A stretch of 64,000 nucleotides of DNA, taken from contig NW_024704750.1 of the NCBI RefSeq assembly GCF_018977255.1, positions 20,956,001-21,020,000 on the forward strand. The letters are read 5' to 3'. The number at the start of each line of letters is the position of its first letter. The first letter of the stretch is position 1. Below the pieces are notes generated by a model. The model worked only from the letters and a program-made list of their open reading frames with translations, was not told the DNA's origin and ran no database searches. Made by a program: the position numbers and the translations under genes. This DNA is from Callorhinchus milii (lineage: Eukaryota). Of the stretch, positions 1 to 54,300 are shown one piece after another.

Positions 1-394
1 GTCTCTCCAATGGCAGACCCTGGTCAGGGCCCCCCCACCCCATAGGAGGTAAGAATATTGCTATCTTGTCTCCATGGACCTCACTGTCTCAATTATTTCC
101 ACGCTTTTTGAATGGCAGAGCACGTGACCAAAGGAATAAACGCTGGGTGTTTGATCCAGGTGGGTGCAGCTGTACCTTGGATGGATTTCTTATAAGAAGT
201 TGATCAACTTGCCCACCCGGCTCAACATGTGTTTTGGGATGTCGTCATTTGTGCGCTTGTCGCCAATAAATAGTTTGATTGAAATATTTTTGAATTGTTT
301 TATTAATATAAAGAATTCTGGTTTTCTCACCGTGACTCGAAAAAACACTTTAGTCATTGGGAGATTGGGTATAAATAACAGCTCCATGACAGTA

Positions 395-15900: not shown

Positions 15901-16997
15901 CAGATGCTTCAATTGGAAGAGCGAAGCGGAGCGGAGGTGAGGAGAGGAGAGCTGGCGGGGGGTTCCGAGATAAAGAGCGACAAAACCTTGAAGAGGATTC
16001 CATGACAGAGTCGGGCATATATCATGTAGCGCTGGTTGACTCGAAGTGATTCCAGTTCCTCCTGTTTCTTACAGTCAATCTCCTGGCCATTGTGATCTTG
16101 TCCCAGGGTAAGTGCAGCCTCTCGCGATGTGTGACGTGCTATCTGGTAGCTATGGCGGTGGCAGACCTGCTGGTGGTGGTATCCGATGTGGTGTTAAGAT
16201 GGGTGATTGTTTATTTCCCCGTGTGCTTCCTGGACATCACTCCTGTGTGCAGCTCGGTGATGGTCACAATCGTGGCCTCCACAGAGTGCTCCGTCTGGCT
16301 GACAGTCTTCTTCACCTTCGATCGCTGCGCGACCATTTGTTCCCAGAGGCTAAAGTCCAAGTACTGCACTGAGAAAACAGCGGCTGTGGTGATCGGGACG
16401 GTGTGCGTGCTGAGCTGCTTGGAAAGCGTTCCCTGGTACTTTAAGTTTGAGCCCGGCCATGTTATCGACAACGTGCCCTGGTTTTGCGAAACAAAAGCCA
16501 GTTACTACACTTCGTCCACGTGGGCAGCGCTGGAGCTCATCCACCGCATCCTCGTGCCTTTGCTGCCCTTCCTCCTGATTCTCGTTTCCAACGCTCTGAC
16601 CATCCGGCACATCCTGGCCTCCAGCAAAGCCCGCAGGCGGTTCCGGACACACAGCACCGGGGACCGTCAACCAGACCCAGAGGCTGAGAGGCGCAGAAAG
16701 TCTATCACTCTGCTGTTCGCCATATCAGGCAGTTTCATCCTTTTGTGGACGCCTTTCCTCTCCTATTTCATTTACCAGCGAGTGGGCTTCATGTCCAATT
16801 CCTATCATCCCTCTCCCCTTGCGGCGACGCTGGGCGTGATGCTCCAGCTGCTCAGTTCCTGCACAAACACATGTATCTATGTCGCGACCCAAAGTAAATT
16901 CAGAGAAGAGCTTGGGAATTTTTTGAAATATCCTTGCACTCTAATTGTGAAACGCCTTGGACGGCCTCCTGACGTGAAAGGCACCACACGGATGTAA
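12943..16997 (+). CDS. GPR139-like class A (rhodopsin family) GPCR, copy 1; 2 exons, 337 aa
   Basis: Exon 1 12943-13033 (MQYPYN...[11 protein letters not shown], phase 1, GTACGT donor). Exon 2 16075-16997 after a ttcttacag acceptor ([17 protein letters not shown]). Seven hydrophobic segments with AMAVADL, FDRC (DRY-like), LWTP and CTNTCIY (NPxxY-like). Confidence 0.9.
14206..14570 (+). mobile_element. tRNA-derived SINE (dominant family) in the GPCR intron
   Basis: Full head-to-tail copy. Confidence 0.8.
15036..15360 (+). mobile_element. tRNA-derived SINE (dominant family) in the GPCR intron
   Basis: GGAGTCCTGTCGCGTAGTGG head, body and truncated tail. Confidence 0.8.
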
Positions 16998-22884: not shown

Positions 22885-25236
22885 ATGCAATACCCCTATA
22901 ACCTGGCTCATATACCAACAATATCTGAGATTGAAGTCATTTACTATCCGATCCTTGGAGCAGTTGGGATTCCTGGTACGTTGCTTTTAAAATCTCTCTT
23001 GTAATATTGTGTTAAAGTTTAAGAGTGTTATTCATTATTATTTTTATTTGTTATCATTATTTTCATTGTCTTTGTTGCACAATCACCTATTTTGTCCTGC
23101 TCTCCCTTCACTCATTTGCATTACATTCTGCTGTCCAGAGACTTCCTCTGACATCTTTCCAGAATCATTGTTGGTAATGAAGATCTATACCATGACCCAC
23201 AGTTGGCTTTTAAACTAAAATTAAAATGGATGTGATATATTGTTTAAAAAAATTACTAAATCAAAAGAAAGAGTGCCGAGCTGGCTCAGTCAGTATCATT
23301 CTCATCTGAGTCAGTAGGTTGTGGGTTCATGGTGACGGGTTCCACCGTCAGGACTTGGAACTCATATAGTTTAAGCTGATGCTCCAGTGAGGCAGTGGAG
23401 AGAGCTGGGTGGGGGTGTTGGGGGGGCTGCATGGTCAGTGGTGCCGTCTGTCATCCTTCAGATGAGATGTTAAACTAAGGTCCCGTTTGCCTGTTCAGGA
23501 GGATGTTAAAGATCGTGTGACTATTTGAAAAAAGAAGACAGTTTAATAATAAAAACAATCCTTGCATTTGATATAGCGCCTTATCACATCTTCAAGTCAT
23601 CTCAAAGCGCTTCACAATGATAAGGTGTCCTTCACGTGGGGTAGCATCTTGGATCTTGGAGCACTTAACAGTAGCAGATCCTGATGCTGAGCCGGGGATA
23701 GGTGGGAAGTGACCATTGGTATATTCGAAGAGGAAGATATTCAAATATGATCTAAAAATGAGGAAGGAGGAGGGAAGCCGGAGAGATTGTGGATTGTGGA
23801 GTCCCTTAGCATATTAGCTAGAGCACTCGCCTCACAAGCAAGGGGACCAGGGTTTTATCTCCAGACGGGGCGAAACCTTAGGCAAGTTTCCTTACTCCAC
23901 ACACCTCTGTTTACCTCACAGTGAATGGCGACCCAGTTGTTAGTCGTGAAACGTCTCAATTGCTGAATTGTTAGTTTTGACTGTATTTGTATTTATCAAA
24001 AGTGGCACTGAATTGGGGCTCAGTGACATTCCACAAACTGCTATGAAATCAATACCTATATATCTGGAACAAAACAATTGGAGGGAAGAGGTCTGGAGTT
24101 TAGGAAACTATTTGAAGGAGCGAATAACTGGTGCTGGAGCAGATGCTTTAATTGGAAAAGCAGAACATAGCGGAGGTGAGGAGAGGAGAGCTGGCGGGGG
24201 TTTCCGAGATAAAGAGCGACAAAACCTTGAAGAGGATTCCATGACAGAGACGGGCATATATCACATAGCGCTGGTTGACTCAAAGTGATTCCAGTTCCTC
24301 CTGTTTCTTACAGTCAATCTCCTGGCCATTGTGATCTTGTCCCAGGGTAAGTGCAGCCTCTCGCGATGTGTGACGTGCTATCTGGTAGCTATGGCGGTGG
24401 CAGACCTGCTGGTGGTGGTATCCGATGTGGTGTTAAGATGGGTGATTGTTTATTTCCCCGTGTGCTTCCTGGACATCACTCCTGTGTGCAGCTCGGTGAT
24501 GGTCACAATCGTGGCCTCCACAGAGTGCTCCGTCTGGCTGACAGTCTTCTTCACCTTCGATCGCTGCGCGACCATTTGTTCCCAGAGGCTAAAGTCCAAG
24601 TACTGCACTGAGAAAACAGCGGCTGTGGTGATCGGGACGGTGTGCGTGCTGAGCTGCTTGGAAAGCGTTCCCTGGTACTTTAAGTTTGAGCCCGGCCATG
24701 TTATCGACAACGTGCCCTGGTTTTGCGAAACAAAAGCCAGTTACTACACTTCGTCCACGTGGGCAGCGCTGGAGCTCATCCACCGCATCCTCGTGCCTTT
24801 GCTGCCCTTCCTCCTGATTCTCGTTTCCAACGCTCTGACCGTCCGGCACATCCTGGCCTCCAGCAAAGCCCGCAGGCGGTTCCGGACACACAGCACCGGG
24901 GACCGTCAACCAGACCCAGAGGCTGAGAGGCGCAGAAAGTCTATCACTCTGCTGTTCGCCATATCAGGCAGTTTCATTCTTTTGTGGACGCCTTTCCTCT
25001 CCTATTTCATTTACCAGCGAGTGGGCTTCATGTCCAATTCCTATCATCCCTCTCACCTTGCGGCGACACTGGGCGTGATGCTCCAGCTGCTCAGTTCCTG
25101 CACAAACACATGTATCTATGTCGCGACCCAAAGTAAATTCAGAGAAGAGCTTGGGAATTTTTTGAAATATCCTTGCACTCTAATTGTGAAACGCCTCGGA
25201 CGGCTTCCTGATGCGTTAATCACCACACGGATGTAA
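22885..25236 (+). CDS. GPR139-like class A GPCR, copy 2; 2 exons, 337 aa
   Basis: Exon 1 22885-22975 ([30 protein letters not shown]), exon 2 24314-25236; same motifs as copy 1. Confidence 0.9.
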
Positions 25237-28277: not shown

Positions 28278-33079
<4,802 letters not shown>

Positions 33080-37560: not shown

Positions 37561-38357
37561 GTTCTAATCTTGTTCCTGTCTGTTCAAGGTTTTGCGTAAA
37601 AAGTATTTATTTTTCAATGTACATAAATAAATACCACTTGAAACACACGCGTCTATAATTTCCTTTATTTCTCAATTGATTAATTATTTTTCATGATAAA
37701 CCTAGCCCCTCGACCACTGGTAAGTCTAAACCTCACTCTTGTTCCCCTGCAACAGGGCATCCAATCTTCTGGCTGCCATGAGCCACGTAAGCAAGTTTTG
37801 TGTTTCCTTTCCAGAAACATTTAGAACACTCTTTTCACATTCAAAGGACATCTTAGAGAACTCGACGCCTGCCAACTAGGCACCAAGCTGGGGATGGGAG
37901 CCAAGAGAGGTGGGATGGGAAAAGCATGGCTAAAAAGTTAGATCTTCACATGCCTTGAAAGAGGGGAAGGAGGGAGCAAGTTGGAGGGACTCCCAGAATG
38001 GAACTCCAAAGCAGCCGTAAAAGATGGGGTGCTCCAGCATGAAGCAAACCAGTGTTTGTTGGGTAAATGGCAGAGGTAGGGTGGGGAGAATGATGGACAT
38101 AGAAGTTTCTTACTGGGAATAGAGGAAGTTTTCTGTGAGGGCCTCACAGCACGCCTCCCCCCACTCCTCAATCACAGGTGTTTTTATTTATGTCTCTCCC
38201 TCATACTCTCTCAATGTCTCCTCTCAGTGTACTCTCGCACAGACTCTCCATCTCCCCCCCCCCCCCCCCACCGCCCGTCTTTCTTATTCAGCAGCACAGC
38301 TTTGGCAGCGGGATCGGCTGCTCCACCACTCACGTGACATGCCACAGAAGGCCGGTA

Positions 38358-38716
38358 TTATAATAATAATCCTTGCATTTGATATAGCACCTTATCACGT
38401 CTTCGAGACGTCTCAAAACTCTTCATAGCATACACTGTAAAGTGAATTGACTATATTCTGTGGGATACACAGCAGCTAATTGCACACCACAATGTTCCAC
38501 AAACATCGTGGATTGAGTGACCAAATTATTATTATTTATTTGAAAGGATTATTACCCTTGGAGAAGCGATCCGCCAAACGACTAACAACTTGGTTCCTAC
38601 TTACTGCTAGGTAAACAGAGGTGTGTGGAGTAAGGAAACTTGCCCAGAGTTTCGCCCTGCCCGGGAATCGAACCCAGGTCTCTCGCTTGTGATGTGAGTG
38701 CTCTAACCACTAAGCC
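38358..38716 (-). mobile_element. tRNA-derived SINE (dominant family)
   Basis: Near-complete reverse copy with B box GGTTCGATTCCC. Confidence 0.85.
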
Positions 38717-39729
38717 TTCCCAACTCTTCCCTCCACAAGATCATCCAGAACTCTGCAGCTTGGCCACATGATCCCATCATCCCCACCCGGCTCCCCAATC
38801 CCCCAGAGGATAGACTTCAAAATCCTCATATTCAAGGCCCTCCATGCCCTTGCCGCTTCCTAATTCTGTGACCTACTAACCCCATATCAACCTGTCCGCT
38901 TCCTCCGCTCAGCATTGGTCGGTCAGGCCTTCAGCCTCTCTGCCCCCACCATTTGTAATTCCATCCCACATTCCCTTCGCCTCGCTCCCTTCTTTGCCCT
39001 CTTCAAGGCACATCTCAAGACCCTCCTCTTCGACCATGCCTTCAGCCACCCTCCTTGATCCTAAACGCCTGCTTGGGTCCAAATCCAACTGTCCACAGTG
39101 CCTTTGGACGTCCTCCCGACATCAAATGGACCATACAAATATAATTGTATTGTAAGCTACATTATTCTCACTCTCCGCGCTGCGTCCTTCCAACCGCTGC
39201 CATGAGAGGACGGTTCCACGAGAAGGGAGGGAGCAGGCAGCCCAAAGTTGGAAATGGTCTCAGGCTGGATAACATCAAACTCCAGGCCGGGTGCAGCCCA
39301 CTTGTTGGGACTACACTGCTCTACGACAACTACAAAACCCGTCGCAGATTTTAATACAAAAAAAAGTAACAAAATGACAAAAAAAAAACACATGTACATC
39401 CAGCACCGGAGAAGAAATTTAAACCCTGTCCAATGGAGGTCTTCCACTCTCCTCGCACTCAAAGGGTTGGAGGTTTGAGCTCCCCCCCACCACACGAAGG
39501 TTCCAGCTCCCCACACACACACACACACACACACTCGGGGCTCCTTGCTCCCAGTCCAGTCTGATGCTCCGGTGCAGCGCTAGGAGAGCATCGCGGTGTC
39601 AGACCTTCACAACTTCTGTGAACGTGTCTGCCCTCAGGGAGGGCATACGTTAAACACCTCCCCTGTTGGGTTCGGGGGGGGGGAAGAGAGGATGTTTCTC
39701 TCTCCCAGTGTCCTGTGTGCGTATTACGG

Positions 39730-39958
39730 TCACCAGCTCAGACGTGTGTGTTTGTATATTATTGTCCCCAGCTCAGGCGTGTGAGTATTGCCGTTCCCAG
39801 CTCAGGTGTGCGTGTGTCTTATGGTCCCCAGCTCAGGTGTGTGTGTTTGTTGGTGACTCCATTCAGGGGTGTGTGTATGTGTGTGCGTGCGTGTCTCTGC
39901 CCCAACTCAGGTGTGTGTGTTCTTCGATGCCCGGCTCAGGCGTGTGTGTGCTGGTGAC
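39730..39958. repeat. Degenerate ~30-35 bp tandem repeat (CCCAGCTCAGGTGTGTGTG...), about 7 units
   Basis: Units start near 39732, 39767, 39796, 39827, 39858, 39901 and 39930. Confidence 0.75.
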
Positions 39959-41018
39959 GCCGCAGGGCGCCAGAGGTGTTGAAGCGTTTCTGGCACTGGC
40001 TGCACTGGTACGGCCGCTCCCCAGTGTGTGTGCGCTGGTGAGCGCGGAGCGAGCCCGAGTGTGTGAAGCGTTTGGCGCAGTGCGAGCACTCGTACGGCCT
40101 CTCCCCTGTGTGTGTGCGCTGGTGGGTGAGAAGGGCGCCTGAGCGGTTGAAGCGCTTGTGGCACTGGCCGCACTGGTAGGGCCTCTCCCCGGTGTGTGTA
40201 CGAGCATGCGCGGTCAGTGAGCCCGAGTGGCTGAAACGCTTGCCACAGGCCGAGCACTCGTACGGTCTCTCTCCTGTGTGTGTGCGCTGGTGCGTGGCCA
40301 GGGCACCGGGGCGGTTAAAGCGCGCCTTGCACACGGTGCAGGCGTGGGGCCGGCCCCCAGTGTGCGTGGTCTGGTGCTTGCGGAGCGCGCTGGGCACGGG
40401 GAAGCGCTTGCCGCACTGGCCGCACTGGTGCGGTTTGTCGCCTGTGTGGTTGCGGTGGTGGAGCAGGCGGCCGCTAGCCGTGCGGAAGCGCTTGTGGCAG
40501 ATCACACACTCGAAGGGCTTCTCACCAGTGTGCGTGCGGGCGTGCGCGGTCAGCCCGCAGGATTTGGTGAAGCGTTTCTGACACACCGTGCACTGGAACG
40601 GCCTGTCTCCCGAGTGCGTGCGCTGGTGACGCATCATGTTGCAGGACTGGGAGAAGCGGCGGCTGCAGACGGGACACTGGAAACTCTTCTCCCCGGAGTG
40701 CGTACGGAGGTGGAGGATCTGCTCACCGGACGTGGCAAAGCGTTTCTGGCACAGCGAGCACTGGAATGGTCTCTCTCCCGTGTGCGAGCGCTGGTGCACA
40801 CACAGCCCGCTCGCCGTGCGGTAACGCTTCTCACACAGCCGACACCCGTACGGTCGCTCCCCCGTGTGAGAGCGCTCATGGATCCGCAGCTTGGAGGCTC
40901 CGCGGAAACGCTTCCCGCACACCGGGCACTCATAACGTCCCTCACTGGCCCCAGTAACGGCCAACGGCAATGTCTCTACACCATCTGCTAACACTGCCTG
41001 GTCCGTCTCTGTCTCCAT
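39936..41018 (-). CDS. C2H2 zinc-finger protein, 12 tandem fingers, 360 aa
   Basis: Twelve CxxC-x12-HxxxH units with TGERP/TGEKP-type linkers. A polypyrimidine tract and AG acceptor (41026-41027) lie 7 nt before the ATG, so an upstream exon is required. Confidence 0.92.
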   Translation of the reverse strand: METETDQAVLADGVETLPLAVTGASEGRYECPVCGKRFRGASKLRIHERSHTGERPYGCRLCEKRYRTASGLCVHQRSHTGERPFQCSLCQKRFATSGEQILHLRTHSGEKSFQCPVCSRRFSQSCNMMRHQRTHSGDRPFQCTVCQKRFTKSCGLTAHARTHTGEKPFECVICHKRFRTASGRLLHHRNHTGDKPHQCGQCGKRFPVPSALRKHQTTHTGGRPHACTVCKARFNRPGALATHQRTHTGERPYECSACGKRFSHSGSLTAHARTHTGERPYQCGQCHKRFNRSGALLTHQRTHTGERPYECSHCAKRFTHSGSLRAHQRTHTGERPYQCSQCQKRFNTSGALRRHQHTHA

Positions 41019-41092
41019 TACCGGTCTGAGAGAGAGAAATAGAGACTGAGAGAAAGACTTATCACATCATTGCCTGTAAATGGATGAGCACG

Positions 41093-41093
<1 letters not shown>

Positions 41094-41136
<43 letters not shown>
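41094..41136. repeat. (CAAT)n microsatellite
   Basis: About ten perfect CAAT units. Confidence 0.9.
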
Positions 41137-41138
<2 letters not shown>

Positions 41139-42209
41139 TTTGACTCCTCCCATTTCCTCCCTTGTTCTGCGTTCCTCCGCCTCTTCATTGATTGACAGCC
41201 CAACTCCAGCCACTTGTGAATGGGTGGAGACTGATGTCAATCAGTTGTAGACTCCTCCCATCGCCATGCGGGAGCCCCTTGTGGCTGAATGGAGGCGCTC
41301 GACAGACAGAAGGCACGAGTGAGGGCATTCAGTGGCGACCAGGGTGGCATTTTGCCCGGATTAAACTGGATGCTTGTCCAAATCAACCGGCATATTTAAA
41401 ACAAGTAAGAATCGGGGCTGGGCGGTTTGTTCGGTTCATCCAGCGTTGACTGGTGTCTGCTTAAAACAGATTCCACTTTACATATAATCCAGTGGTAGAT
41501 ATAATGTAACATGTAATGTAATATAATATATATATATCTGTGATGACAATTCTATATAACAGTATACAGGGAGAGAGAGACAGACATACACACACGTAAT
41601 AAAATATAAAATGTAATGTAAATGTAAATAAAATGATATATAGTCTAAGCGCTCCGAGACCCTACCCTGCGTGGTGGGCGCTATGTAAGGGCAAGTTGTT
41701 GTTGTATATATCTGTGTGATATAATATATATAAACCGGTGATAGATGTAATGTAATATGTAATACAACATGTCATATAATAATATTTACAGTGATGCGTG
41801 TGTCACAGTCACTGTGTGTGTGTTCACACTATTTTGTTATAGTAATAATATAATTATATAATATAATGTATATCTGTGACAAACAATTATAAATACAATA
41901 TACAGAGAGAGACACACAAACACACATAATTGAATATACTTATATATATGGTAAGATTATTCCGGTGATGATAATAATCTTTGCATTCACATCGTTGAGA
42001 CGTCTCAAAGCGCTTCACAGAATGTATTGTAAAATGTAGTGACTGTGTGTTCTGTGGGCGACACGGTGCTAACAGAATATATAATTATATACAGTATAAT
42101 ATTATTATTTGGAGGGGGATTATTACGCCCTTATTATAAATTACAATAGTCAGTTCAATCCACCACTGTTTGCGGGACACTGCGGTGGGCAAACGGCGGC
42201 CGCGTTTCT

Positions 42210-42552
42210 CCCCCCCCGCCCCATACTCCCCAAATACCCCCCAATACCTCCCAAATACACCCCCCTAACCAGCCCCCCCCAATATAGCCCCCCCAAATAC
42301 AGCCCAATATAGCCCCACCAAATAACCCCTCCAAAAATACTCCCTATACCTCCTAAATACACCCCCAAACCACCCCCCCAATATAGCCCCCACAAAATAT
42401 AGCCCCCACCAAACTTCCCCAATACTCCCCAAATACCCCCAACCCTCCCCATACCTCCCAAATACACCACGAATACCCCCTAATATAGCCCCCCCAATAG
42501 TCCCCAAATATCCCCCAACAACACCCCCCAATACCTCCCAAATACGCCCCCC
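42210..42552. repeat. C-rich low-complexity array (inverse of the 48020-51170 array), running into the gap
   Basis: CCCCAATAC, CCCAAATAC and CCCCATAC units. Confidence 0.9.
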
Positions 42553-42577
42553 NNNNNNNNNNNNNNNNNNNNNNNNN
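42553..42577. other. Assembly gap (25 N)
   Basis: Run of N. Confidence 1.
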
Positions 42578-42875
42578 GAGAGAGGAAAGGGCGAAGCTGG
42601 GAGGCAACAGCTCTCTCAAGAACCTTATACTGAAAAGAGAGGTTGGAGATGGGCCGGTAACTGGATAGCTGTGTTGGGTCAAGGGAAGGTTTCTTCAAGG
42701 TGGGTAGTGGCTGTTTTGAGGAGGGTAGGAACATGCAAGATGACAGGGAGCGGTTGATGATAACGGTGAGTAGTGGGGCAAGGAGGTGGAGCTGGGATTT
42801 AAGGAAAGGGGTGGGGATGGGGTCCAGGGAGCAGGTGGTGGGCTTCATGGAGGATATGGTGGTGATGATAGAGGA
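42578..42875 (-). mobile_element. L2 LINE RT fragment
   Basis: MKPTTCSLDPIPT...LKKPSLDP...YRPISNL. Confidence 0.85.
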
Positions 42876-43385
42876 GGGTAAGAGATTGCACAGTCAGAGA
42901 CATAAACCAACCTTATCAAAGGATTATGAATAGGTTACATTCTAAAAGAATATAAAGATTAATTAAAGGTCTCAAAAAAACATTAAGCATCACAAATATA
43001 ATCTTACAACCACACATTACATTTACACAGCATCTTTCATATGGGGAGGACGTCCCAAGGCACTGGATAGTCAGCGATTTGGACCTGAGCTGGCGGTTGG
43101 GATCAGGATGGGAGGAGGGCAGGGAGGGTGGAGGTAGGAAGGTGACCGAAGGCACAAATGCACACATGGACACACACTCACACACAGTGATTGATGTCTC
43201 ACCTTGCACAGTGAGCTGCGCTACCGCTGTACAGGGAATAAACCAGTTCCTCCCTCTCACACTCACATACACAAGACACACACACAGTGACAGACCCACA
43301 CACACAACAGTGACTGTAGCACACACACAGAGACACACCCACAGATAAACACACACACATACATACACAGTGACTGACATCTCAC

Positions 43386-44913
43386 CTCGCACAGTGAGCT
43401 GCACTACCTGACTGTACGGGGAATAAACCAGTTGCTTCTCCCCACGCACAGCGTACACGCACTCGTACCCCCCTGCATTCTCAGTGGTGACGTTGTGGAT
43501 GGTTAGAGTCACTCGCTGGTCAGTGACCTGGTCCCAGCGCTGGAGGATGGTGCCTTGGACTTTATACAGGAAAACATGGCTCGGGGGAGGGGGCGGCATG
43601 GAGCATGATACACGCACCGTGTCGCCCTCCCCCACCACACCGTCCATCGGCTCCACACACACGGTGGGGAGAGGGAGGTCACCTGTAACCAAAGAATGTG
43701 TTAGAGAGAGAGAGAGAGAGTATGTGTGAGTGTGAGAGACTGAGAGAGAGAGAGAGGGTGAGGGAGAGGGGGAAGAGAGGGAAATTTCCACCTTGACAAG
43801 GAGTGAGGTTTAATGTCTCTGACTGTGCAATCTCTTACCCTTCCACAGGGGCTGACATTCTCCAGTGAAGGAACCCACTGCAGAGAAATATAAAGATTAA
43901 ACTCAAACATTAGTGTGTCAGCTTGGCTCAGTCACTCTCTCTGTATATACAGTATATATGTTACAGTAAAGTTGTGAAACCAGAAACTTCTCAACCAGAC
44001 ATCACAACCATGCAATAAGGCGTTTTATCAGATGTGAGAATTATTATAATTATTATAATAATAATAATATTATACCGAGGCATGTAATGTAGCCCATCAC
44101 ACAGAGGATACAGTTCAAGATCCTGGTCCTCACCTTCATGACTTTGCTTCCCTCTACCTCTGCGACCTCGTAACCATCTACCAACCTGCCTTCTTCCTCC
44201 ACTCAGCAGGCTCCGGACTGCTTTATGGCCCCCGCCTCGCCCCATCGTTGGAGGGTGGGTGTTCTGCCACTCTACCCCACTCCCTAGAACTCCATCCCAC
44301 AGTCCATCCCACTCGCCCCCTCCCTTGCCTCCTTCAAGACTCATCTCAAAACCCTCCTCCCCCCCCCCCGCCCTCCATCCTCCCCTATCCCGATCCCCAG
44401 CTCAGGTCCAAAACAGGGACTATCCAGCGGCTTTCGACATCCTCCCAACGGGAAAGGCACTATACAAATGTTGTTTGTTGTTGTTGTTGTAGCGGGTAGC
44501 ACGTTCGCATCACAAGTGAGAGGACCCAGGTTTGATTCCCGGGGGTGGGGGGTGCGAAAACTTTCGCACCGTTCAACGGTCCCAACTCCAACGTTCCCAA
44601 CTCCACAAGCCTCTGTTTACCTAGCAGTTAAGTAGGAACCCGCTTGTTAGTTGATTGGCTAATCGCTTTCCGAGGGTAATAATCCCTCCAACATAATAAT
44701 AATTTGGTCACTCAATCCACGACTGTTTGTGGTACGTTGCTGCCGCGTTTCACCCATAAAAAATCGTCACTAACCTTCACAGTACATCCTTTGAAGCGCT
44801 TTGAGATGTCTCAAAGACATGAAAGGCGCTATATCTAATGCAAGGATTATTATTTTTATTATTCAAAGAGAAGTACACTCACCCAGCGAGAGAACCAGGT
44901 AAAGAAGAAACAT
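43386..44913 (-). CDS. Ig-superfamily (LRC-type C2 domain) gene, 5' part: split signal peptide plus one Ig exon; 3' exons not seen
   Basis: Exon 1 44883-44913 (MFLLYLVLSL, 31 nt), mini-exon 43839-43877 (VGSFTGECQPLWK, 39 nt) and Ig exon 43386-43682 (297 nt: DLPLPTVCVEP..VV.EGDTVRVSC...ENAGGYECVY...YSPYSQVVQLTV). All introns are phase 1, GT-AG. Confidence 0.8.
44490..44860 (+). mobile_element. tRNA-derived SINE in Ig gene intron 1
   Basis: Dominant SINE family sequence. Confidence 0.8.
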
Positions 44914-45319
44914 AGCCAAGGTCTTCCCTTTGCAGAATAATCTCAAATTAGACAGAGTTTAGCTTGCTGCTCCCCAAACAGCAGACGTGTCTGAGCCAAA
45001 CTCAGTCCCTGACGGACAGAGATAAGACCTCGAAACCCAGGACTAAACACACGACGGAAATTAGTGCGTTTTATCCATAGGACACAGAGAGGCATCCTGT
45101 CACGAACCGACAATAACTCGTTTCTATAAATAATAATGATCCTTGCATTTGATATAGCGCATTTTCATGTCATTGAGACCTCTCAAAGTGCTTCACAGAA
45201 TATATTCTAAAATGTAGTGATTGCATACTTTGTTGGGGTAACACCATATTTTGTGTATAGTTTGACAATAATGTGTGGGTTAAATGTGGTGATTGAGCGG
45301 GCGAGACATTGGGCATGTT

Positions 45320-45665
45320 ATAATAATAATCCTTGCATTTGATATAACGCCTTATCATGTCGTCGAGGCGTCTCAAAGCGCTTCACTGTAACTGTGACTG
45401 TGTACTTTATGAGTGAAACACAGCAGTCAATTACGCACAGCGATGTCCCAGTCAATTATGGATTGAGTGACCAAATTATTATTATTTTTTAGCGGGAATA
45501 TTACCCCGGAAAGCGATCATCCAATCGGTCAACAAGCTTACTGCTAGGTGAACAGAAGCGCATGGAATAAGGAAAGTTGCCTAAGGTTTTGTCCCGACCA
45601 AGAATCAAACCCAGAACCTTTCGCATGTGAGGCGAGCGCGCTAATCACTTTGCTACAGGACTTCA
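45320..45665 (-). mobile_element. tRNA-derived SINE (dominant family)
   Basis: Reverse copy. Confidence 0.8.
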
Positions 45666-46019
45666 CTATAATGCAAGTTGTTGTTATTGTTAAACACTGA
45701 AACTGTGGAATTTTCTGGATCACAAGAGGACATTCAGCCATCGTATCTCTTATCGTTTCTGAGCTGTTTCATGGTGTAAGTCAACAATAATAACATAAAC
45801 TCTTTACAAAGGCGCCTCTCACACCTACACCTTATGTTTATTACTTTTTATTATTAAATTTGTTTAATTTTTTTGAAAAACACAGAGGAGAAGAGAAAGC
45901 GGAGAGTCTTTCAATGTGAAAAAATATATTATTACATTAAAAAAAGAAAAAGGTTTTAAATGTTTTCAATGAGTTTGGTGCACTCACTGGTTGTGAGGCG
46001 GTGGCCATCTTTAGTGTTC

Positions 46020-46590
46020 TATAAGCGGGGTCTCATTGGAGCTGAATTGGCTCCAAAGCGACGTGCCTGGCAATAAAATGTTGGAATCGAGCCAGCCCAT
46101 TGTGGTGGTCTTAGTTGTCCAGTTCCTGAGCCAGGCAGGTCCGCAGTATTCCACGTCACTGCTGATGGCAGCACAGTCAGCCTGGCTCATCGGCAGGACC
46201 TGGAAGGGCTGACATTGGGGGCAGGGAGTCATCCCACTTAGTTCTTGTTAACCTTGTGAGCCAAAGCGCTAACAGGGAGGGTGGTCCTAGCTGGACAAGC
46301 AGCAGGAAAGCTTGCCAGACAGTGCTCTCAATGGCAAGCTATACGGTTTTAGACTCCAGTAGTTACCCCAACGCATGCTCTGGGGTCCCCAAGCCTTGGC
46401 TCTTGCCAACCTGTGCCTCATACTTTCCGGAATTAGGTAAGCAGGATGCCTCCCTCCAGGGAGAGAGAGCGCATTCCATTCCAACAATTTGTCTCTGTGA
46501 TTTCCATGTGTCGGTGGGATGCATGGAATTTTAGCCTGGTTTGGAAAGTCTTAAGCACAGAGATGGGTTTCCACATGTATCAAGACACCT
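46020..46590. repeat. Unclassified old interspersed repeat (longest copy)
   Basis: Homologous to ~1335-1560, 6780-6840 plus 7180-7600, 15600-15825 and 26170-26300. Confidence 0.7.
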
Positions 46591-46834
46591 TCAGCCTCTC
46601 TGCCCCCATCCTCTGGAACTCCATCCTACAGACCCTCCGTCTCACCCCTTCCCTTGTCTCAAGACCCTCCTCTTCAACGGTGCCTTCAGTCACCCTCCTA
46701 TCCCTACCCTCCCTGCTCTCCACCCCTTGTGACCCCAACCACCAGCTTGGGTCCAAATCTCTGACTGTTCCGGCGCCTTTGGGGCGACCTCCTGACTTGA
46801 AAGGCGCTATACAAATGTAATTTGTTGTTGTTTT

Positions 46835-47228
46835 AAGGCCACCCATGGCCTCGCCCCCTCCTACATCTGACCTGCTGACCCCCTACCAACCCGCCCGCTC
46901 CCTCCGCTCATCAGGCTCCGGGCGTGTCTCCCGCCCGACCCGCCCTACCATCGGTGGCCGGGCTTTCAGCCTCTCTGCCCCCACACTCTGGAGGTCCATC
47001 CCACGGTCCCTTGGCCTCTCGCCTCCTCCCTCGCCTCCTTCGAGGCCGGTCTCAAGACCCTTCTCTTCGACCGCGCCTTTGGTCTCCCTCCCACCTCTCC
47101 CTGCCTTCCCTCACCCCCCTCCACCACCACCCCACCCCATGCTCGGGCCCCGACACCGCTTTGGGACGTCCTCCCGACGTGAAGGGGCGCTCTGGAAACA
47201 TCACGTCGTCGTTGCTGCTGTCGTCGTC
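46835..47228 (+). mobile_element. GC-enriched L2 3' fragment
   Basis: LLTPYQPARSLRS...IGGRAFSLSAPTLW and tail GGGACGTCCTCCCGACGTGAAGGGGCGC. Confidence 0.8.
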
Positions 47229-47229
47229 C

Positions 47230-47551
47230 ACGTAGGAGCCGAAGCAGCGGCGGCCATCTTTAGTGTACCCGCCGGATGTGGGGCCGGAGTGGGACGGGGG
47301 GGTGGGCGCGGCCAGGTGTCACGCGTCACTTCCGCTCTTTGTCCGCCTCTCCCGCCGCCGCCGCCGCCATCTTGGTCGCGGGAACCGTTCAAAAAAATAT
47401 ATTCGAAAAACAAACCGTCTCCCAACGGCCGATAAAGGCGACGAGTCGTTAAATTCCCGTGGGGGTGGGGGGAGGGGGGGGAAGGGGAATAAAAGAAAAG
47501 GAAGATAAAAAAACACCGGCGGCGGCCCGAGGGCACGTCACGGAAATAACG
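47230..47551 (+). promoter_or_regulatory. CpG-island promoter with probable non-coding first exon
   Basis: CpG-dense. YY1-type GCCATCTT at 47253-47260 and CCGCCATCTT at 47364-47373; ETS CACTTCCG at 47327-47334; strong donor AACG|GTAAGA at 47551/47552. Confidence 0.65.
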
Positions 47552-48019
47552 GTAAGAGTTATTGTTTTCGAAAATCTATATATCTTTTTTTAATTTATAT
47601 AAAAGATAACCCGTCGCCGACGCGATCTGCCACACGTTATCATCACTTTGTATGGTATTAAGTCCTGCATTGCATTCTGTATCGTTATGGATCACACACT
47701 TATGGTTTTATATGACATTACTTGTTCGTTGTTATAGGGCTATAACACCATTGTAATAATAATAATAATAATAATAATAGATGTTATGTCACGAATATAC
47801 ACCAACTGTCACATGTCATATATTACATTATACATATTATATAATGCGTCATTATATATTGCGTTGTATGATTATCCTTTCGCTCGATGCGGGCGTCTCG
47901 AAGACCTGATAAGGCGCTGCACCAAATGCACGGATTGTTATTGTTATTGTTGCACCTTCGAGACGTCTCGCAGCGCTTCACCGGAGTGTACTGTAAAGTG
48001 AAGTGACTGTATGTTTTGT

Positions 48020-51000
48020 TGTTGGGGGTATTTGGGAGGGGGTTAGGGGGTGTATTTGGGAGGTATTGGGGGGGTATTTGGGGAGTATGGGGCGGGGGGT
48101 TGGGGGTATTGGGGGGGTTAGGGCGTGTATTTGGGAGGTATTGGGGGGTATTTGGGGAGTATGGGGCGGGGGTTGGGAGGTATTGGGGGGTATTTGGGGA
48201 GTATGGGGCGGGGGAGTTTGGGGTATTTGGGAGGGGGTTAGGGGGTGTATTTGGGAGGTATTGGGGGGGTATTTGGGGAGTAGGGGTGGGGGGTTGGGAG
48301 GTATTGGGGGGGTATTTGGGAGTAGGGGTGGGGGTTGGGAGGTATTGGGGGGTATTTGGGGAGTATGGAGCGGGGGATTGGGGGTATTTGGGGGGGTTAG
48401 GGGTGTATTTGGGAGATATTGGGAGAGTATGGGAGGGGGGTATTAGGGGGTATTGGGGGGGGTTAGGGGGTGTATTGGGGGGTATTGGGGCAGTATGGGG
48501 CGGGGGGTATTGGGGCAGTATGGGGCGGGGTGTATTGGGGGGTGTATTGGGGCAGTATGGGGCGGGGGGTATTGGGGGTATGGGGCGGGGTGTATTGGGG
48601 CAGTATGGGCGGGGGGTATTGGGGCAGTATGGGGCGGGAAGGTATTGGGGCAGTATGGGCGGGGGGTATTGGGGCAGTATGGGGCGGGAGGTATTGGGGC
48701 AGTATGGGGCGGGGGGTATTGGGGCAGTATGGGGCGGGAGGTATTGGGGCAGTATGGGGCGGGGGGTATTGGGGCAGTATGGGGCGGGAGGTATTGGGGC
48801 AGTATGGCGCGGGGGGTATTGGGGCAGTATGGGGCGGGGGGTATTGGGGCAGTATGGGGCGGGGTGTATTGGGGCAGTATGGGGCGGGGGTATTGGGGGG
48901 TATGGGGGGGGGGGTATTGGGGCGGGAGGTATTGGGGCAGTATGGGCGGGGGGTATTGGGGCAGTATGGGGCGGGGTGTATTGGGGCAGTATGGGGCGGG
49001 GGGTATTGGGGGGTGTATTGGGGCGGGGGTATTGGGGCAGTATGGGGCGGGGGTATTGGGGCAGTATGGGGCGGGGTGTATTGGGGGGTGTATTGGGGCG
49101 GGGGGTATTGGGGCAGTATGGGGCGGGGGGTATTGGGGAGTATGGGGAGGGGGATATTAGGGGGTATTGGGGGGGTTAGGGGGGTGTATTGGGGGGTATG
49201 GGGCGGGGGGTATTGGGGGTTATGGGGCGGGGGGTATTGGGGCAGTATGGGGCGGGGGGTATTGGGGGGTATGGGGGGGGGTATTGGGGGGTATGGGAGG
49301 GGGTATTGGGGGGTATGGGGGGGTGTATTGGGGGTATGGGGCGGGGGTATTGGGGGGTATGGGGCGGGGGGTATTGGGGGGTATGGGGGGGGGTATGGGG
49401 GGGTATTGGGGGGTATGGGAGGGGGTATTGGGGTATGGGGGGGTGTATTGGGGTATGGGGCGGGGGGTATTGGGGGTATGGGGCGGGGGGTATTGGGGGG
49501 TATGGGGGCGGGGGGTATTGGGGGGTATGGGGCGGGGGGTATTGGGGGTATGGGGCGGGGGGTATTGGGGCAGTATGGGGCGGGGGGTATTGGGGCAGTA
49601 TGGGGCGGGAGGTATTGGGGCAGTATGGCGCGGGGGGTATTGGGGCAGTATGGGGCGGGGGGTATTGGGGCAGTATGGGGCGGGGTGTATTGGGGCAGTA
49701 TGGGGCGGGGGTATTGGGGGTGTATTGGGGCGGGAAGTATTGGGGCAGTATGGGGCGGGGGGTATTGGGGCAGTATGGGGCGGGGTGTATTGGGCAGTAT
49801 GGGGCGGGTGTATTGGGGGGTGTATTGGGGCGGGGGGTATTGGGGCAGTATGGGGCGGGGGTATAGGGCAGTATGGGGCGGGGTGTATTGGGGGGTGTAT
49901 TGGGGCGGGGGTATTGGGGCAGTATGGGGGGGGGTATTGGGGGAGTATGGGGAGGGGGGTATTAGGGGTATTGGGGGGGGTTAGGGGGGTGTATTGGGGG
50001 TATGGGGCGGGGGGTATTGGGGCAGTATGGGGCGGGGGTATTGGGGGTATGGGGGGGGGTATTGGGGGGTATGGGAGGGGGTATTGGGGGGTATGGGGGG
50101 GTGTATTGGGGGGTATGGGGCGGGGTATTGGGGGGTATGGGGCGGGGGGTATTGGGGGTATGGGGGGGTATGGGGGGGGTTATTGGGGGTATGGGAGGGG
50201 GTATTGGGGGTATGGGGGGTGTATTGGGGTATGGGGCGGGGGTATTGGGGGTATGGGGCGGGGGGTATTGGGGCAGTATGGGGCGGGGGTATTGGGGGTA
50301 TGGGGGGGTATTGGGTGGTATGGGGGGGGTATTGGGGGGTATGGGGGGGGTATTGGGGCAGTATGGGGCGGGGGTATTGGGGGTATGGGCGGGGGGTATT
50401 GGGGGTATGGGGGGTATTGGGGCAGTATGGGGCGGGGGGTATTGGGGGGTATGGGGCGGGGGTATTGGGGGGTATGGGGGGTATTGGGGCAGTATGGGGC
50501 GGGGGGTATTGGGGTATGGGGCGGGGGGTATTGGGGGGTATGGGGCGGGGGGTATTGGGGCAGTATGGGGGGTATGGGGGGGGTTGGGGGGTGTATTGGG
50601 GCAGTATGGGCGGGGGGTATTTGGGGGTATTGGGGGGTATGGGGCGGGGGTATTGGGGCAGTATGGGGGTATGGGGGGGGTTGGGGGGGTGTATTGGGGC
50701 AGTATGGGCGGGGGGTATTTGGGGGTATTGGGGGTATGGGCGGGGGGTATGGGGGGGGTATTGGGGGGTATGGGGGGTATTGGGGGTATGGGGGTATTGG
50801 GGGGTATGGGGGGGTATTGGGGGGTATGGGGGGGGTATTGGGGGGTATTGGGGGGTATTGGGGGGTATTGGGGGTATGGGGGGGGTATTGGGGGGTATGG
50901 GGGGGTATTGGGGGGTATGGGGTATTGGGGGTATGGGGGGGTATTGGGGGGTATGGGGGGGTATTGGGGGGTATGGGGGGGGTATGGGGTATGGGGGGGT

Positions 51001-51170
51001 ATTGGGGGGTATGGGGGGTATTGGGGGTATGGGGGGTATTGGGGGGTATGGGGGGGTATTGGGGGGTATGGGGGGTATTGGGGGGTATGGGGGGGTATTG
51101 GGGGGTATGGGGGGGGTATTGGGGGGTATGGGGGGGTATTGGGGGTATTGGGGGGTATGGGGGGGGGTTC
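48020..51170. repeat. 3.1-kb G-rich degenerate tandem array (GnTATT / GnTAT / GGCAGTATGG units)
   Basis: Seen directly; variable G-run lengths and scattered TTAGGG. Confidence 0.95.
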
Positions 51171-51179
51171 GTGGGGGCG

Positions 51180-51375
51180 AATCAATACGCATTCGGACCT
51201 TCTTTTAAAAGAGCGACACCCCCCCGTCACGTGATCAGCGCGGGCCTCTGGCGTCACCGACGTGCCAGGACCGTGCGCGTGACGTCAGCCGCAGGCCCGG
51301 AGTGGGTGGGGACGGAGGGAGGGGGGGTGGGAGGCTGCGGGGCTGCCGGGCGGGGGAGCGCGAGGTCCCGCTGCC
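51180..51375 (+). promoter_or_regulatory. ABCD4 CpG promoter/5' UTR
   Basis: GTCACGTGAT (E-box/CLEAR-like) at 51226-51235, CRE TGACGTCA at 51280-51287, and Kozak GCCATGG at 51373-51379. Confidence 0.65.
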
Positions 51376-54300
51376 ATGGCTCGGCGCTCGGGGCTGAGGG
51401 GGAAGCAGCCGGTCAGCAGCAGGTGAGCGGAGCGGCGGGGGCTGTAAGCGGCTGTCAGGGCCGGTGGTGGCTCCCAGGTCAGCGCCGCGCCGCGCCGAGA
51501 GCTCAGCCGACCCGACCCGACCCGGCGGCAGGAGTCTCCCTGGGTCAGGGTGGTCTGGTCACGTGCGGGGCCAGCCCCTCCCCCCCGTCCCGTCCCAGCT
51601 ACTAAGTTGCACAAGTCGTATTAATCACCTCCTAACTCGTAACGCCGTTCCCCTGCCCTCCAGTGCCCGCCCACACTTACCGGCGACAATCAGCGGTGGA
51701 GAATTTCATCAACAAAAAGGATATTGCAGTGATTGAGAGGATACAGAGGAGGACAAACTGATTGAGGGGTTGGAGTGTGGGGTGGGGAGGTGTTTTGGGG
51801 GGCTATTTGGGGGGGGTTATATTGGGGGGGGCTATATTGGGGGGGGTTATATTGGGGGGGTTATATTTGGGGGGGGGAGGAGCAAATAGATAAACTGGGC
51901 TTGTTCACTCTGGAGAAGGGAAGGTTACGAGGTGATAAAATTACAGGCTTTAAGATTCTGAAGGGACTTGATAATGTAGATTATAATAAGCTGTTTTATT
52001 TTGTACTGAACAGTAGAACCAGAGGACACGGTCTGCAACTGAAGGCGGGGGGGGGGGGAGGGGGGTAAATTCAGAACAAATCTGCGGAAACACTGCTTCA
52101 GTGAGCGAGTAGTAAACTTACAGAACAGGTTCCCTGGGGAGATGGCGGAAGCAGAAAGTGTTGTTTCTATCGATAGATTACATAGATTTCTGCTAGAAAA
52201 TAATATCTCGGGTTACAGGACACGACAGCCAGGATGGTGGAAGGAAACGAGATGGACCTCGGACTTCTTTCACCTGGCAAGTTCTTATCAAATGACCCAT
52301 CACCTTGTACACGTTTACCATCCAAGCACGCTGAATCACGTGTGTGCAGTGTAGATTATTGATTTAAATTTTATGCAAATCGCATAAGTCGTATTAAATG
52401 CTATGGCCCAGACTGATGTCAATTTTTTACAGTATTTTCATACAAGCCACAAACTCTGCCTTTATCCATCTCTGTGTCCTCTGTTGCCATAGACTAGAAA
52501 ATAGGTATTGTGGGAGTCCCAGGGATCGATCTCCCCCCCCCCCCCCCCATCTCTCAGCCAGGGCTGGAGCTTCAGGCTAGAGGTGTGGCACCAAAGAAAG
52601 ACACGGCATCATGATAGAAAGATGGCTGGTCCGTCATGATGTGCTATTCTGATTTCCAGGCCGAAGCTGGATCTACTGTTTTTGCAGCGATTTGGGCGGA
52701 TCCAGGCTATTCTCTACCCGTCATGGCTGTCGCAGAGTGTGCTGATGTATGCCACGCTGCTGGCTGTCGCCCTCCTTGGTGAGTCCGTGCTGTGTGCTGG
52801 GTATATTTCTGTCAATTCACTTTACATTAAATTCTGTGAAGCGCTTTGAAATGTCTTGAAGACATGATAAGGGACTATATCAAATGCAAGGGTTATTATT
52901 ATTATTAGAGCTGTATATTTGATATAAATGACCTGGACTTGGATATAGGGAATACAATTTCCAAGTTTGCAGATGATACTGAGCTAGGAAAAGTAGTAAA
53001 CAGTGAGGAGGATAGTAGCAGTCTGCAAATGGACATGGAGACTGGTAAAATGGGCAAACACGTGGCAGATGAAGTTTAATGTGGAGAAATGCAAAGTGAT
53101 GTATTTTGGGAGGAAGAATGAGGAGAGGCGATATAAGCCGATGGTACAATCTTAAAGGGGTGAAGGAACAGAGAGATCTGGGGCTCATATAAGAAAATCT
53201 TTGAAGGTGGCAGGACAGGTAAATAAAGCTGTTAAAAAAGCATACGGGATACTGGACTTTATAAATAGGGGCATAGAATACAAAAGTCAGGAAGTTATGA
53301 TGAACCTTTATAAAACACTGGTTAGGCCTCAGCGAGAGACTGTGTTCAGTTCTGCGCCCCACACTTTAGGAAGGATGTCAAGGCTTTGGAGAGGTGCTAG
53401 ACGTACAGAGGATCGGTCGGTGTGTGTGTGAGTGAGTGAGCGCCATAATTTTCAGGGCAGATAATGATCCGTCTCCATGTTTAGTGCCACATCTTCGGTA
53501 ACTTGGATGGGGTGAGGAGGCAAAATGCATCTCTGACATCTTGTTTCAGCTCCTCTGTAGTTTCATATTGCCGTTTTGTAACGGGGCAGTGGGGGGAAAG
53601 GGGGGTAACAGGACTTTATGGGCACTCTGTACAAACTGAAATCTCATTCGACCAATTGCCCTCCCCTTCACTCCATTGTGTACAAATCCAGGAATGGGAT
53701 GATTGTTTCTGTATTTCAATATAATCCTGCTCACATCTGTCTGTTCACGCTGTTGTTAAAAGATCTTGTGACTCTTATCAAAAAGAGAAGGTATCCTGGC
53801 CTCCAGTTAATTGGTCATTCACCTCCTGGCTATTTGTGGGACATTGCTCTGCGAGAATTAATTTACTGCCATGTTAGCGTACAAAATACGCACTCACTAC
53901 ACTTTATAGAAAAATCCTGGGAAGCGTTTTGAGGTGTTTTGACGTGAGGAGGTGTTATGGATGGATTATGGATTATTGCATGGATTATTGTTAAGTGTTC
54001 AGTTTCTCCAGTCAGTTACTGACTCAGGCAGGTGTTGTTCTCATGTCAGCTTGCCCGCTCTGTTTGTTTTTGTTGAATAATGGCAATAGAGTGCGGTGTT
54101 GTGTACAGATTACCTGATTGAGTAAAGAATCCTGACCCTAGTTATCAGCTTATCAGGATTCATCCTCCTGGACTTTGATTTGTCAGGTTAATGGCTTGGA
54201 GCTGGCAAAGGAGATGGGTGATGGAAGCGAATAAACAGGATCTGGCATAGGACAGAGCAGGTGTCCTGCAAAATTTTGGGGCACAACCAGGGCTTTTGTG

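Follow-up and report, generated by a model that had tools for sequence, protein, structure and literature searches.

Mis-assembly beside a gap as the probable cause of a reversed segment between two G-rich arrays, which parts a zinc-finger gene from its first exon in the elephant shark reference

Inversions between inverted repeats, such as int1h and int22h of F8, can split a gene from its first exon. In this arrangement one repeat copy is intronic and inverted relative to a copy outside the gene, and the flip cuts the coding body off from its promoter and first exon. G-rich minisatellites are also known to arise inside retroposons, e.g., mouse Ms6-hm in an MT/MaLR element. The genes placed around such repeats in the locus described here include one of the vertebrate tandem C2H2 type, with one coding exon of linked fingers behind a CpG-island non-coding exon.

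Comparable layouts are found at the overfilled or mis-extended gaps of the gap-filling tool PBJelly, for which the relevant passages of the literature state that a flank alignment of about 200 bp at 15% error is accepted, that at least 25 N define a gap, and that in one test genome 44% of the overfilled gaps were scaffolding errors, with inversions suspected among the rest (PMC3504050, PMC9635638, PMC7757076, PMC8848313). According to its supplement, the published long-read assembly of Callorhinchus milii was produced with FALCON, HiRise and PBJelly and leaves 69.3 kb in about 2,100 gaps, ~33 bp per gap (PMC8302630), a mean from which it follows, as far as the supplement goes, that the gaps are unsized. 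The stretch analyzed here, called the window throughout, comprises 64,000 nucleotides and was presumably drawn from this PBJelly-filled assembly, as suggested by the style of its gap and by a protein that matches C. milii at 100%. Between two G-rich arrays it contains a segment (42578..48019) that is reversed relative to the expressed zinc-finger gene, and this reversal is probably a mis-assembly beside the gap.

The zinc-finger gene is represented by a C2H2 coding exon at 39936..41025 on the minus strand, with an AG acceptor just before 41025 and a 360-aa ORF that runs from an ATG at 41018 to a stop at 39936. Twelve fingers were counted by eye in the ORF, which matches Pfam PF13465 and PF00096; no KRAB, SCAN or BTB domain was among its Pfam matches, and the best of 8000 scored candidates (lengths 195-622) were distant relatives, about 35-51% identical. 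The exact protein was absent from the protein collection searched. On the plus strand, a CpG island holding a non-coding exon lies at 47200..47551, the exon ending at a GT donor (47551/47552). CpG observed/expected is 1.45 over 47200-47620, the exon is free of ATG, and the sequence of its end is unique within the window. The acceptor at 41026/41025 (-) and the donor facing the opposite way, both reported in a preliminary description of the locus, are present.

The preliminary description had proposed that these two exons belong to one gene, with the middle segment reversed, and that an RNA junction from 47551 (+) to 41025 (-) should exist. Contig ends together with depth arithmetic show this junction in two of the three RNA-like runs. 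The data were contigs of 4 of 24 listed sequencing runs (X1, X5, X9, X10) over 39200-48110, a stretch that reaches into the first part of the right array; no listed run is recorded as RNA, X9 and X10 come from two studies, and their RNA origin rests on the canonical splice. Record 29 of X9 (depth 3.5) and record 13 of X10 (depth 7.72) both leave the reference at the zinc-finger acceptor 41025/41026, with 44 and 35 leftover letters, respectively. When these letters were placed at the end of the plus-strand exon, the depths predicted for bins 47246-47543 and 47544-47841 were 0.435 and 0.082 in X9 (observed 0.43 and 0.08) and 0.699 and 0.207 in X10 (observed 0.70 and 0.21). Only 47550 and 47551 fit among 700 end positions tried. 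The two records explain the whole depth in both bins, leaving no further contig over the donor there, and part of exon 1 (47507-47551) is backed by contigs of both runs. The zinc-finger gene is thus expressed and spliced normally, as a tandem C2H2 gene with its CpG-island exon. Since exon 1 on the plus strand is joined to the zinc-finger exon on the minus strand, the sequence between 42578 and about 48420 runs opposite to its direction in the animals from which the RNA came. The splice in X9 and X10 supplies independent data for this other orientation, the only one seen, in two of the four runs; X5 and X1 carry no orientation information. In X5 the depth could not be decomposed, and the main contig runs unspliced across the acceptor to 41083.

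The left breakpoint coincides with a gap of 25 N (42553..42577), the only one in the window. We take 25 N to be the mark of an overfilled PBJelly gap. Left of it lie genes for 7TM receptors and a lysine methyltransferase. The reversed segment begins directly after the gap with non-array sequence, from an intron of an Ig-domain receptor gene (LOC103186801, XP_007904228.1), whose 5' half occupies 43386..44913 on the minus strand. The signal-peptide exon (44913-44883) and a 39-nt exon (43877-43839) are predicted from splice signals and frame only; the Ig1 exon (43682-43386) is covered exactly by record 21 of X5 (43386-43682, with 44 further letters). Residues 89-286 of the Ig protein are encoded nowhere in the window in either orientation, so the gap conceals lost sequence and its true length cannot be 25 bp. 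The proposal that flipping 42578-48460 in place would restore the locus is accordingly not supported, the 3' exons of the Ig gene being missing either way. A fusion of the Ig gene to the zinc-finger exon in the present orientation was also considered and discarded, since the phase-1 join would lead to a stop two codons further on.

Further evidence is provided by a SINE. A profile of 370 positions was built from 19 copies within the window, and a search with it returned 69 fragments, amounting to 15.8% of the window length. The element is identified as tRNA-derived by its high copy number (69 fragments in 64 kb) and by the only Rfam match over 38000-53000, to tRNA (38661-38716), in the head of the copy at 38715-38357; the split fragment itself has no head. 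A 5' part at 42117..42212 (+) covers the profile from about 160/190 to 256-260 and runs into the left array at 42209, and a 3' part at 47953..48019 (-) covers 261-326 and begins at the edge of the right array. The two pieces are therefore complementary halves broken at one point, as had been claimed, the breakpoint being profile 260/261 on opposite strands. The rebuilt SINE, which had been expected to be intact, spans only about 160-326 of the 370 positions. Fragments starting at profile 238-285 are common (16/69), only 2/69 start at 256-266, and the left-array piece itself is the only one of 69 that ends at 250-270. Identity to the consensus is 85-86% for the two pieces, which equals the window median, and divergence gives no discrimination between candidate partner pieces.

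The left array (42209..42552, C-rich on the plus strand) ends at the gap. It shares its unit vocabulary with the first part of the G-rich right array (48020..48420, TATTT-type units) and has CTATATT spacers in addition. The remainder of the right array (48421..51168) is composed of TATT/CAGTAT-type units with a higher-order period of about 715-805 bp. All exact matches of at least 18 nt between the reverse complement of the left array and the right array lie inside 48046-48368 (longest, 48 nt), in agreement with the observation that the left-array variant matches only the start of the right array. No GGCAGTATGG unit occurs in the left array or in the opening 300 bp of the right array; GGCTATATT units occur five times in the left array and never in the right. 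The reported change of unit type in the right array exists, at about 48410-48445; it is gradual, with AGGTATT, TTA and AGTAT spacers on both sides and no sharp seam, and the left array has GGCTATATT units of its own. Most likely, 48020..48420 is the other end of the left array, and 48421..51168 probably constitutes a second one, upstream of ABCD4. On the right, the breakpoint falls at the start of 48421..51168 or within it, inside a 3.1-kb G-rich repeat that is related to the left array and to which reads can be mis-mapped.

The one SINE is interrupted by the array at profile 256-261, as in minisatellites of the Ms6-hm type. The point of interruption is a short run of C, and the array units are similar to the local CGCCC…ATAC of the SINE; on this similarity the units may derive from the SINE, and nucleation of the array inside the element is plausible. 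The locus differs from Ms6-hm in that related arrays also occur outside SINEs, so the array was possibly copied in. Such arrays lie ahead of ABCD4 and within a LINE-like fragment (about 51790-51880). A third small array in ABCD4 intron 1 has a 22-nt exact match to the left array, which suggests a local array family.

The splice, the complementarity of the SINE ends, the absence of the Ig exons and the gap are all observed, and from them the following course of events may be proposed. On the true chromosome, the zinc-finger and Ig-receptor genes would be divergently transcribed. The zinc-finger intron would hold the SINE fragment interrupted by a single G-rich minisatellite (the left array plus 48020 to about 48420), and the Ig gene would run on towards the second, related array upstream of ABCD4, the two arrays being inverted relative to each other. 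Most plausibly, long reads extended the ABCD4 contig into a gap, and sequence exiting the intronic array was wrongly fused with the array on the ABCD4 side. A piece of about 5.9 kb, with exon 1, the promoter and the Ig 5' half, would thereby have been placed backwards; what the gap really contained, the Ig 3' exons among it, would have been lost, and only a placeholder left behind. The window resembles the PBJelly cases, as far as the cited passages describe them, in its unsized gap with non-overlapping flanks, in a break within a repeat where reads are assignable to the wrong locus, in GC-rich, G-quadruplex-rich sequence at the extension, and in the use of the tool for the published assembly (PMC8302630 supplement); it differs in that the error could equally stem from FALCON or HiRise and is known from contigs, not reads.

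Mis-assembly is favored by the splice, by the missing Ig residues, by a left breakpoint in the window's only gap, with the segment starting in non-array sequence, and also by a frameshift that the assembly has in ABCD4 (below). Several points stand against it. No DNA record over 39200-48110 spans either array (X1 contigs end at the repeats), the splice rests on contig ends and depth arithmetic, the X5 main contig passes unspliced through the acceptor, and the animals sampled for RNA may not match the assembled one. The right junction is continuous, with unit types grading into each other, and a true inversion would produce an identical layout if an unsized gap concealed the array and the Ig exons. 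If the reversal is an artefact, it matters to users of the reference: an expressed zinc-finger gene, seemingly unannotated in the protein collection, is severed from its promoter, the Ig-receptor gene of a key cartilaginous fish is stripped of most coding exons, ABCD4 gains a false upstream exon, and small inversions next to 25-N gaps in the elephant shark genome call for read support.

It is unlikely that the assembled animal carries a real inversion, private or polymorphic, produced by exchange between the intronic array and the inverted ABCD4-side array. The flip would then take in exon 1 with its promoter and the entire Ig gene, leaving the zinc-finger CDS promoterless and exon 1 facing ABCD4, and the gap would conceal the Ig 3' exons and the hybrid end of the array. 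Once the order is rebuilt, the segment is indeed flanked by the arrays as inverted repeats, the right junction has no gap, and G-quadruplex motifs are dense in both arrays (87 in the 3.1-kb right array and 5 in the left, vs. 41 in the remaining 60 kb). Homologous exchange, however, usually needs a few hundred bases of identity, and the longest exact match in the assembled sequence is 17 nt between the left array and 48420-50570 and 22 nt between 48020-48420 and 48420-50570. Such identity is weak for recombination and sufficient to mis-map noisy reads, and of the two causes named in the preliminary description, mis-assembly is preferred to recombination between the arrays. The allele would, moreover, break a gene expressed in two studies, no competing contig lies over the donor in X9 or X10 (though contigs drop rare variants), and one breakpoint coincides with the gap. 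The F8 repeats are long and nearly identical, which again sets them apart from these array types with at most 17-22 exact bases in common; here, in addition, one junction falls at a gap, and the transcript seen is the intact one alone. A segregating elephant shark inversion with its ends in two short-unit, G-quadruplex-rich minisatellites of little exact homology is distinctly improbable. It would aim the zinc-finger CpG promoter and exon 1 at ABCD4, so that the zinc-finger allele would be null and the ABCD4 transcript would lack the ATG exon, and a locally spreading array family, one member SINE-born, would itself have created the invertible cassette; a real inversion would amount to a promoter-swapping polymorphism driven by low-homology G-rich minisatellites. 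The flipped piece is most likely a genome-assembly error and not a real inversion.

A larger mis-join, in which everything from the right array onward, including ABCD4, comes from a distant locus through a chimeric join inside the array, is very improbable. It would account for the absence of Ig 3' exons between the segment and ABCD4 in either orientation, and the 7TM receptor and lysine methyltransferase genes give no tested synteny with ABCD4. Against it, ABCD4 (P020128/XP_007904226.1) and the Ig gene (P020129/XP_007904228.1) are consecutive entries in an older annotation, the numbering of which presumably follows gene order, and this suggests that they are true neighbors; the 22-nt match of the intron 1 array to the left array also points to one local family. 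Hardly credible is a correct present orientation with a coincidental SINE match and an RNA join from a second gene copy or trans-splicing: SINEs are abundant enough in the window, 3' fragments starting at profile 238-285 are frequent, and a 3' piece at 42066-41967 (-; profile 250-365), ~50 bp from the left SINE piece, is its possible partner in a locally inverted insertion, but in two studies the join falls exactly on a GT donor and an AG acceptor, both canonical, the zinc-finger part of the contigs shows 0 other letters, the end of exon 1 occurs only once in the window, and the Ig gene would enter the gap with its 3' exons still missing, so that the splice evidence has already largely refuted it.

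No literature on elephant shark ABCD4, and none on the locus by title or abstract opening, was found. The ABCD4 promoter and coding exon 1 lie at 51170..51423 (+); with a first exon of its own, the gene has no need of the exon ending at 47551. Compared with two database proteins, ABCD4 carries a 1-base frameshift in the assembly at about 55084.

The locus reads, from left to right, as a C2H2 zinc-finger ORF on the − strand (39936-41018), a C-rich array (left array, 42209-42552), a 25-N gap that is the sole gap in the window (42553-42577), an Ig-receptor gene represented by its 5' half (− strand), a CpG island accompanied by a non-coding + strand exon that ends at 47551 (exon 1), a G-rich array of 3.1 kb (right array, 48020-51168), and ABCD4, which starts at 51376 on the + strand. 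Two exons of the window are 100% matches to named C. milii proteins. The protein collection yielded neither the exact sequence of the zinc-finger protein (39936-41018) nor, among the hits that were scored, a close relative, and the gene seems to be unannotated. The preliminary description had rebuilt this gene by flipping the middle segment, and it was right: exon 1 is spliced from 47551 (+) to the zinc-finger acceptor at 41025 (−).

The junction was shown in two RNA-like sequencing runs, X9 and X10, after contigs of four of the 24 listed runs were aligned to 39200-48110. In X9 record 29 (a contig of 182 letters, depth 3.5), letters 45-182 lie on 41026-40889 and 44 letters are left over; in X10 record 13 (371 letters, depth 7.72), letters 1-336 lie on 40690-41025 and 35 letters are left over. 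If the leftovers end at the donor, the depths expected in bins 47246-47543 and 47544-47841 are 0.435 and 0.082 for X9 and 0.699 and 0.207 for X10; those observed are 0.43 and 0.08, and 0.70 and 0.21, and the two records account for all depth in these bins. Of 700 end positions tried for the leftovers, none but 47550 and 47551 agreed with these depths, and the ambiguity of one base comes from a G common to donor and acceptor. The records come from two different studies and have more than 31 letters on either side of the join. The splice was deduced from contig ends and depth arithmetic, not from a direct joint row, at low depths and from contigs that drop rare forms; the exon 1 bins of X5, also RNA-like, could not be decomposed, and the contigs of the DNA run X1 stop at repeats. 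Since exon 1 (+) is joined to the zinc-finger exon (−), the segment is reversed in the X9 and X10 animals. In X5, the main contig crosses the zinc-finger acceptor without splicing (39545-41083) and reaches a CAAT repeat; it may represent a retained intron, another start or the antisense transcript. A + strand GT donor at 41404/41405 ends contigs of X5 (41194-41404, depth 48) and X9 (record 30, whose 263 further letters have no listed piece on 39200-48110); the stretch 41199-41404 (+) is an exon lying antisense within the zinc-finger intron.

The observation that started this work, a SINE split between two inverted arrays, is real. A search with a 370-position profile, made from 19 window copies, gave 69 SINE fragments, together 15.8% of the window. 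The complementary halves noted earlier were recovered as profile positions 160-260 (+) before the left array and 261-326 (−) before the right array, each directly touching its array and both about 85% identical to the consensus, the same as the median copy. The rebuilt element covers only profile positions ~160-326, and is therefore a fragment rather than the intact SINE first proposed. As a null comparison, 3' fragments are common (16 of 69 begin at 238-285), but only two begin at 256-266, and one ends at 250-270. Because a second 3' piece (42066-41967, −, profile 250-365) is an alternative partner for the left half, the SINE argument alone is suggestive but not decisive. Small SINE pieces of opposite orientation at the outer ends of the split fragment (47894-47947, +, profile 314-367; 42097-42130, −, profile 159-192) look like local fold-back copies.

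As described earlier, the left-array variant is confined to the first part of the right array: all exact matches of at least 18 nt lie within 48046-48368, the longest being 48 nt. When the spacers that separate the G-runs were mapped, the left array and 48020-48420 both showed units of the TATTT type, followed to the right by units of the TATT/CAGTAT type, arranged in a higher-order repeat of ~715-805 bp (marks at 48441, 49155 and 49960), and then by simple TAT/TATT units. These repeats are most economically read as a single array, of which the left array and 48020 to ~48420 would be the opposite ends, with the remainder a second array; some spacers are common to both sides of the transition, and the breakpoint could thus be further right. 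The right array holds 87 G-quadruplex motifs. ABCD4 intron 1 contains a further small G-rich array, the third (~51790-51880), within an apparent CR1 LINE fragment; 22 nt of it match the left array exactly.

The Ig gene, overlooked in the preliminary description, is LOC103186801 (XP_007904228.1, 286 aa), whose sequence predicts two Ig domains together with a stalk and a transmembrane segment. Residues 1-88 are present; for residues 89-286 no exon-sized match was found on either strand of the window. Flipping the segment in place therefore leaves the Ig gene cut off and does not fully restore the locus; the 25 N represent no fewer than ~600 coding bases together with introns. ABCD4 and the Ig gene have consecutive entry numbers in an older annotation, where numbering presumably follows gene position, which suggests that they are true neighbours. 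The true order is likely to begin with the zinc-finger exon, then the array with a SINE part on either side, then exon 1 with its promoter; the complete Ig gene, oriented to the right, would come next, before the second array and ABCD4. RNA-like contigs run on past the Ig gene donors (X5 record 21, X10 record 15). At 43203-43245 (−) the 3' end of the Ig exon is duplicated, and the copy has a GT donor of its own; X10 record 15 spans 43415-43203 with 28 further letters, and this second donor seems to be used. Next to the 39-nt Ig exon, the donor and the beginning of the following intron are repeated as an inverted copy of 35 bp with 97% identity (42875-42908 and 43807-43841).

An assembly error is the probable cause of the inversion, and the window lacks sequence. 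The C. milii long-read assembly, from which the window appears to be taken, is described as a FALCON assembly with Chicago and Hi-C scaffolding and PBJelly gap filling; its gaps total 69.3 kb for 3,865 contigs in 1,761 scaffolds, or ~33 bp per gap (PMC8302630; assembly table, PMC12952989). PBJelly extends contig ends with reads aligned over ~200 bp at 15% error, and in one genome 44% of overfilled gaps were traced to scaffolding errors, the rest being suspected inversions or assembly mistakes (PMC3504050). Other papers report gaps overfilled where contigs had been mis-joined, added sequence rich in G-quadruplexes, and reads that repeats caused to be placed at a wrong locus (PMC9635638, PMC7757076, PMC8848313). 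A read leaving the intronic array could have been mapped onto the ABCD4-side array; this would leave a reversed stretch as long as a read (~5.9 kb) that breaks off within intron sequence next to a placeholder gap, and the true content of the gap would be lost. In ABCD4 exon 3 (~55084), one base is missing relative to C. milii V9KTS7 and XP_007904226.1, shifting the frame after residue 91; this is probably an assembly indel, and points to residual assembly error nearby.

A real inversion in the assembled animal would give the same layout if a hybrid array and the Ig exons lay hidden in the gap, and the right junction is gap-free; it is nevertheless unlikely, as the longest exact match between the two array types is short (17-22 nt), an expressed gene would be broken, and one breakpoint coincides with the gap. 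A chimeric join between distant loci is considerably less probable still. That the present orientation is right and the pattern a coincidence is the least credible reading. The searches made found nothing in print on this locus.

Elsewhere in the window, two nearly identical rhodopsin-family 7TM receptor ORFs lie 8.2 kb apart on the + strand (16050-16997 and 24289-25236) and may be a recent tandem duplicate or a duplicated haplotype. A lysine methyltransferase exon (Pfam Methyltransf_16), presumably METTL21-like by resemblance, is located at 28278-28880 (−).
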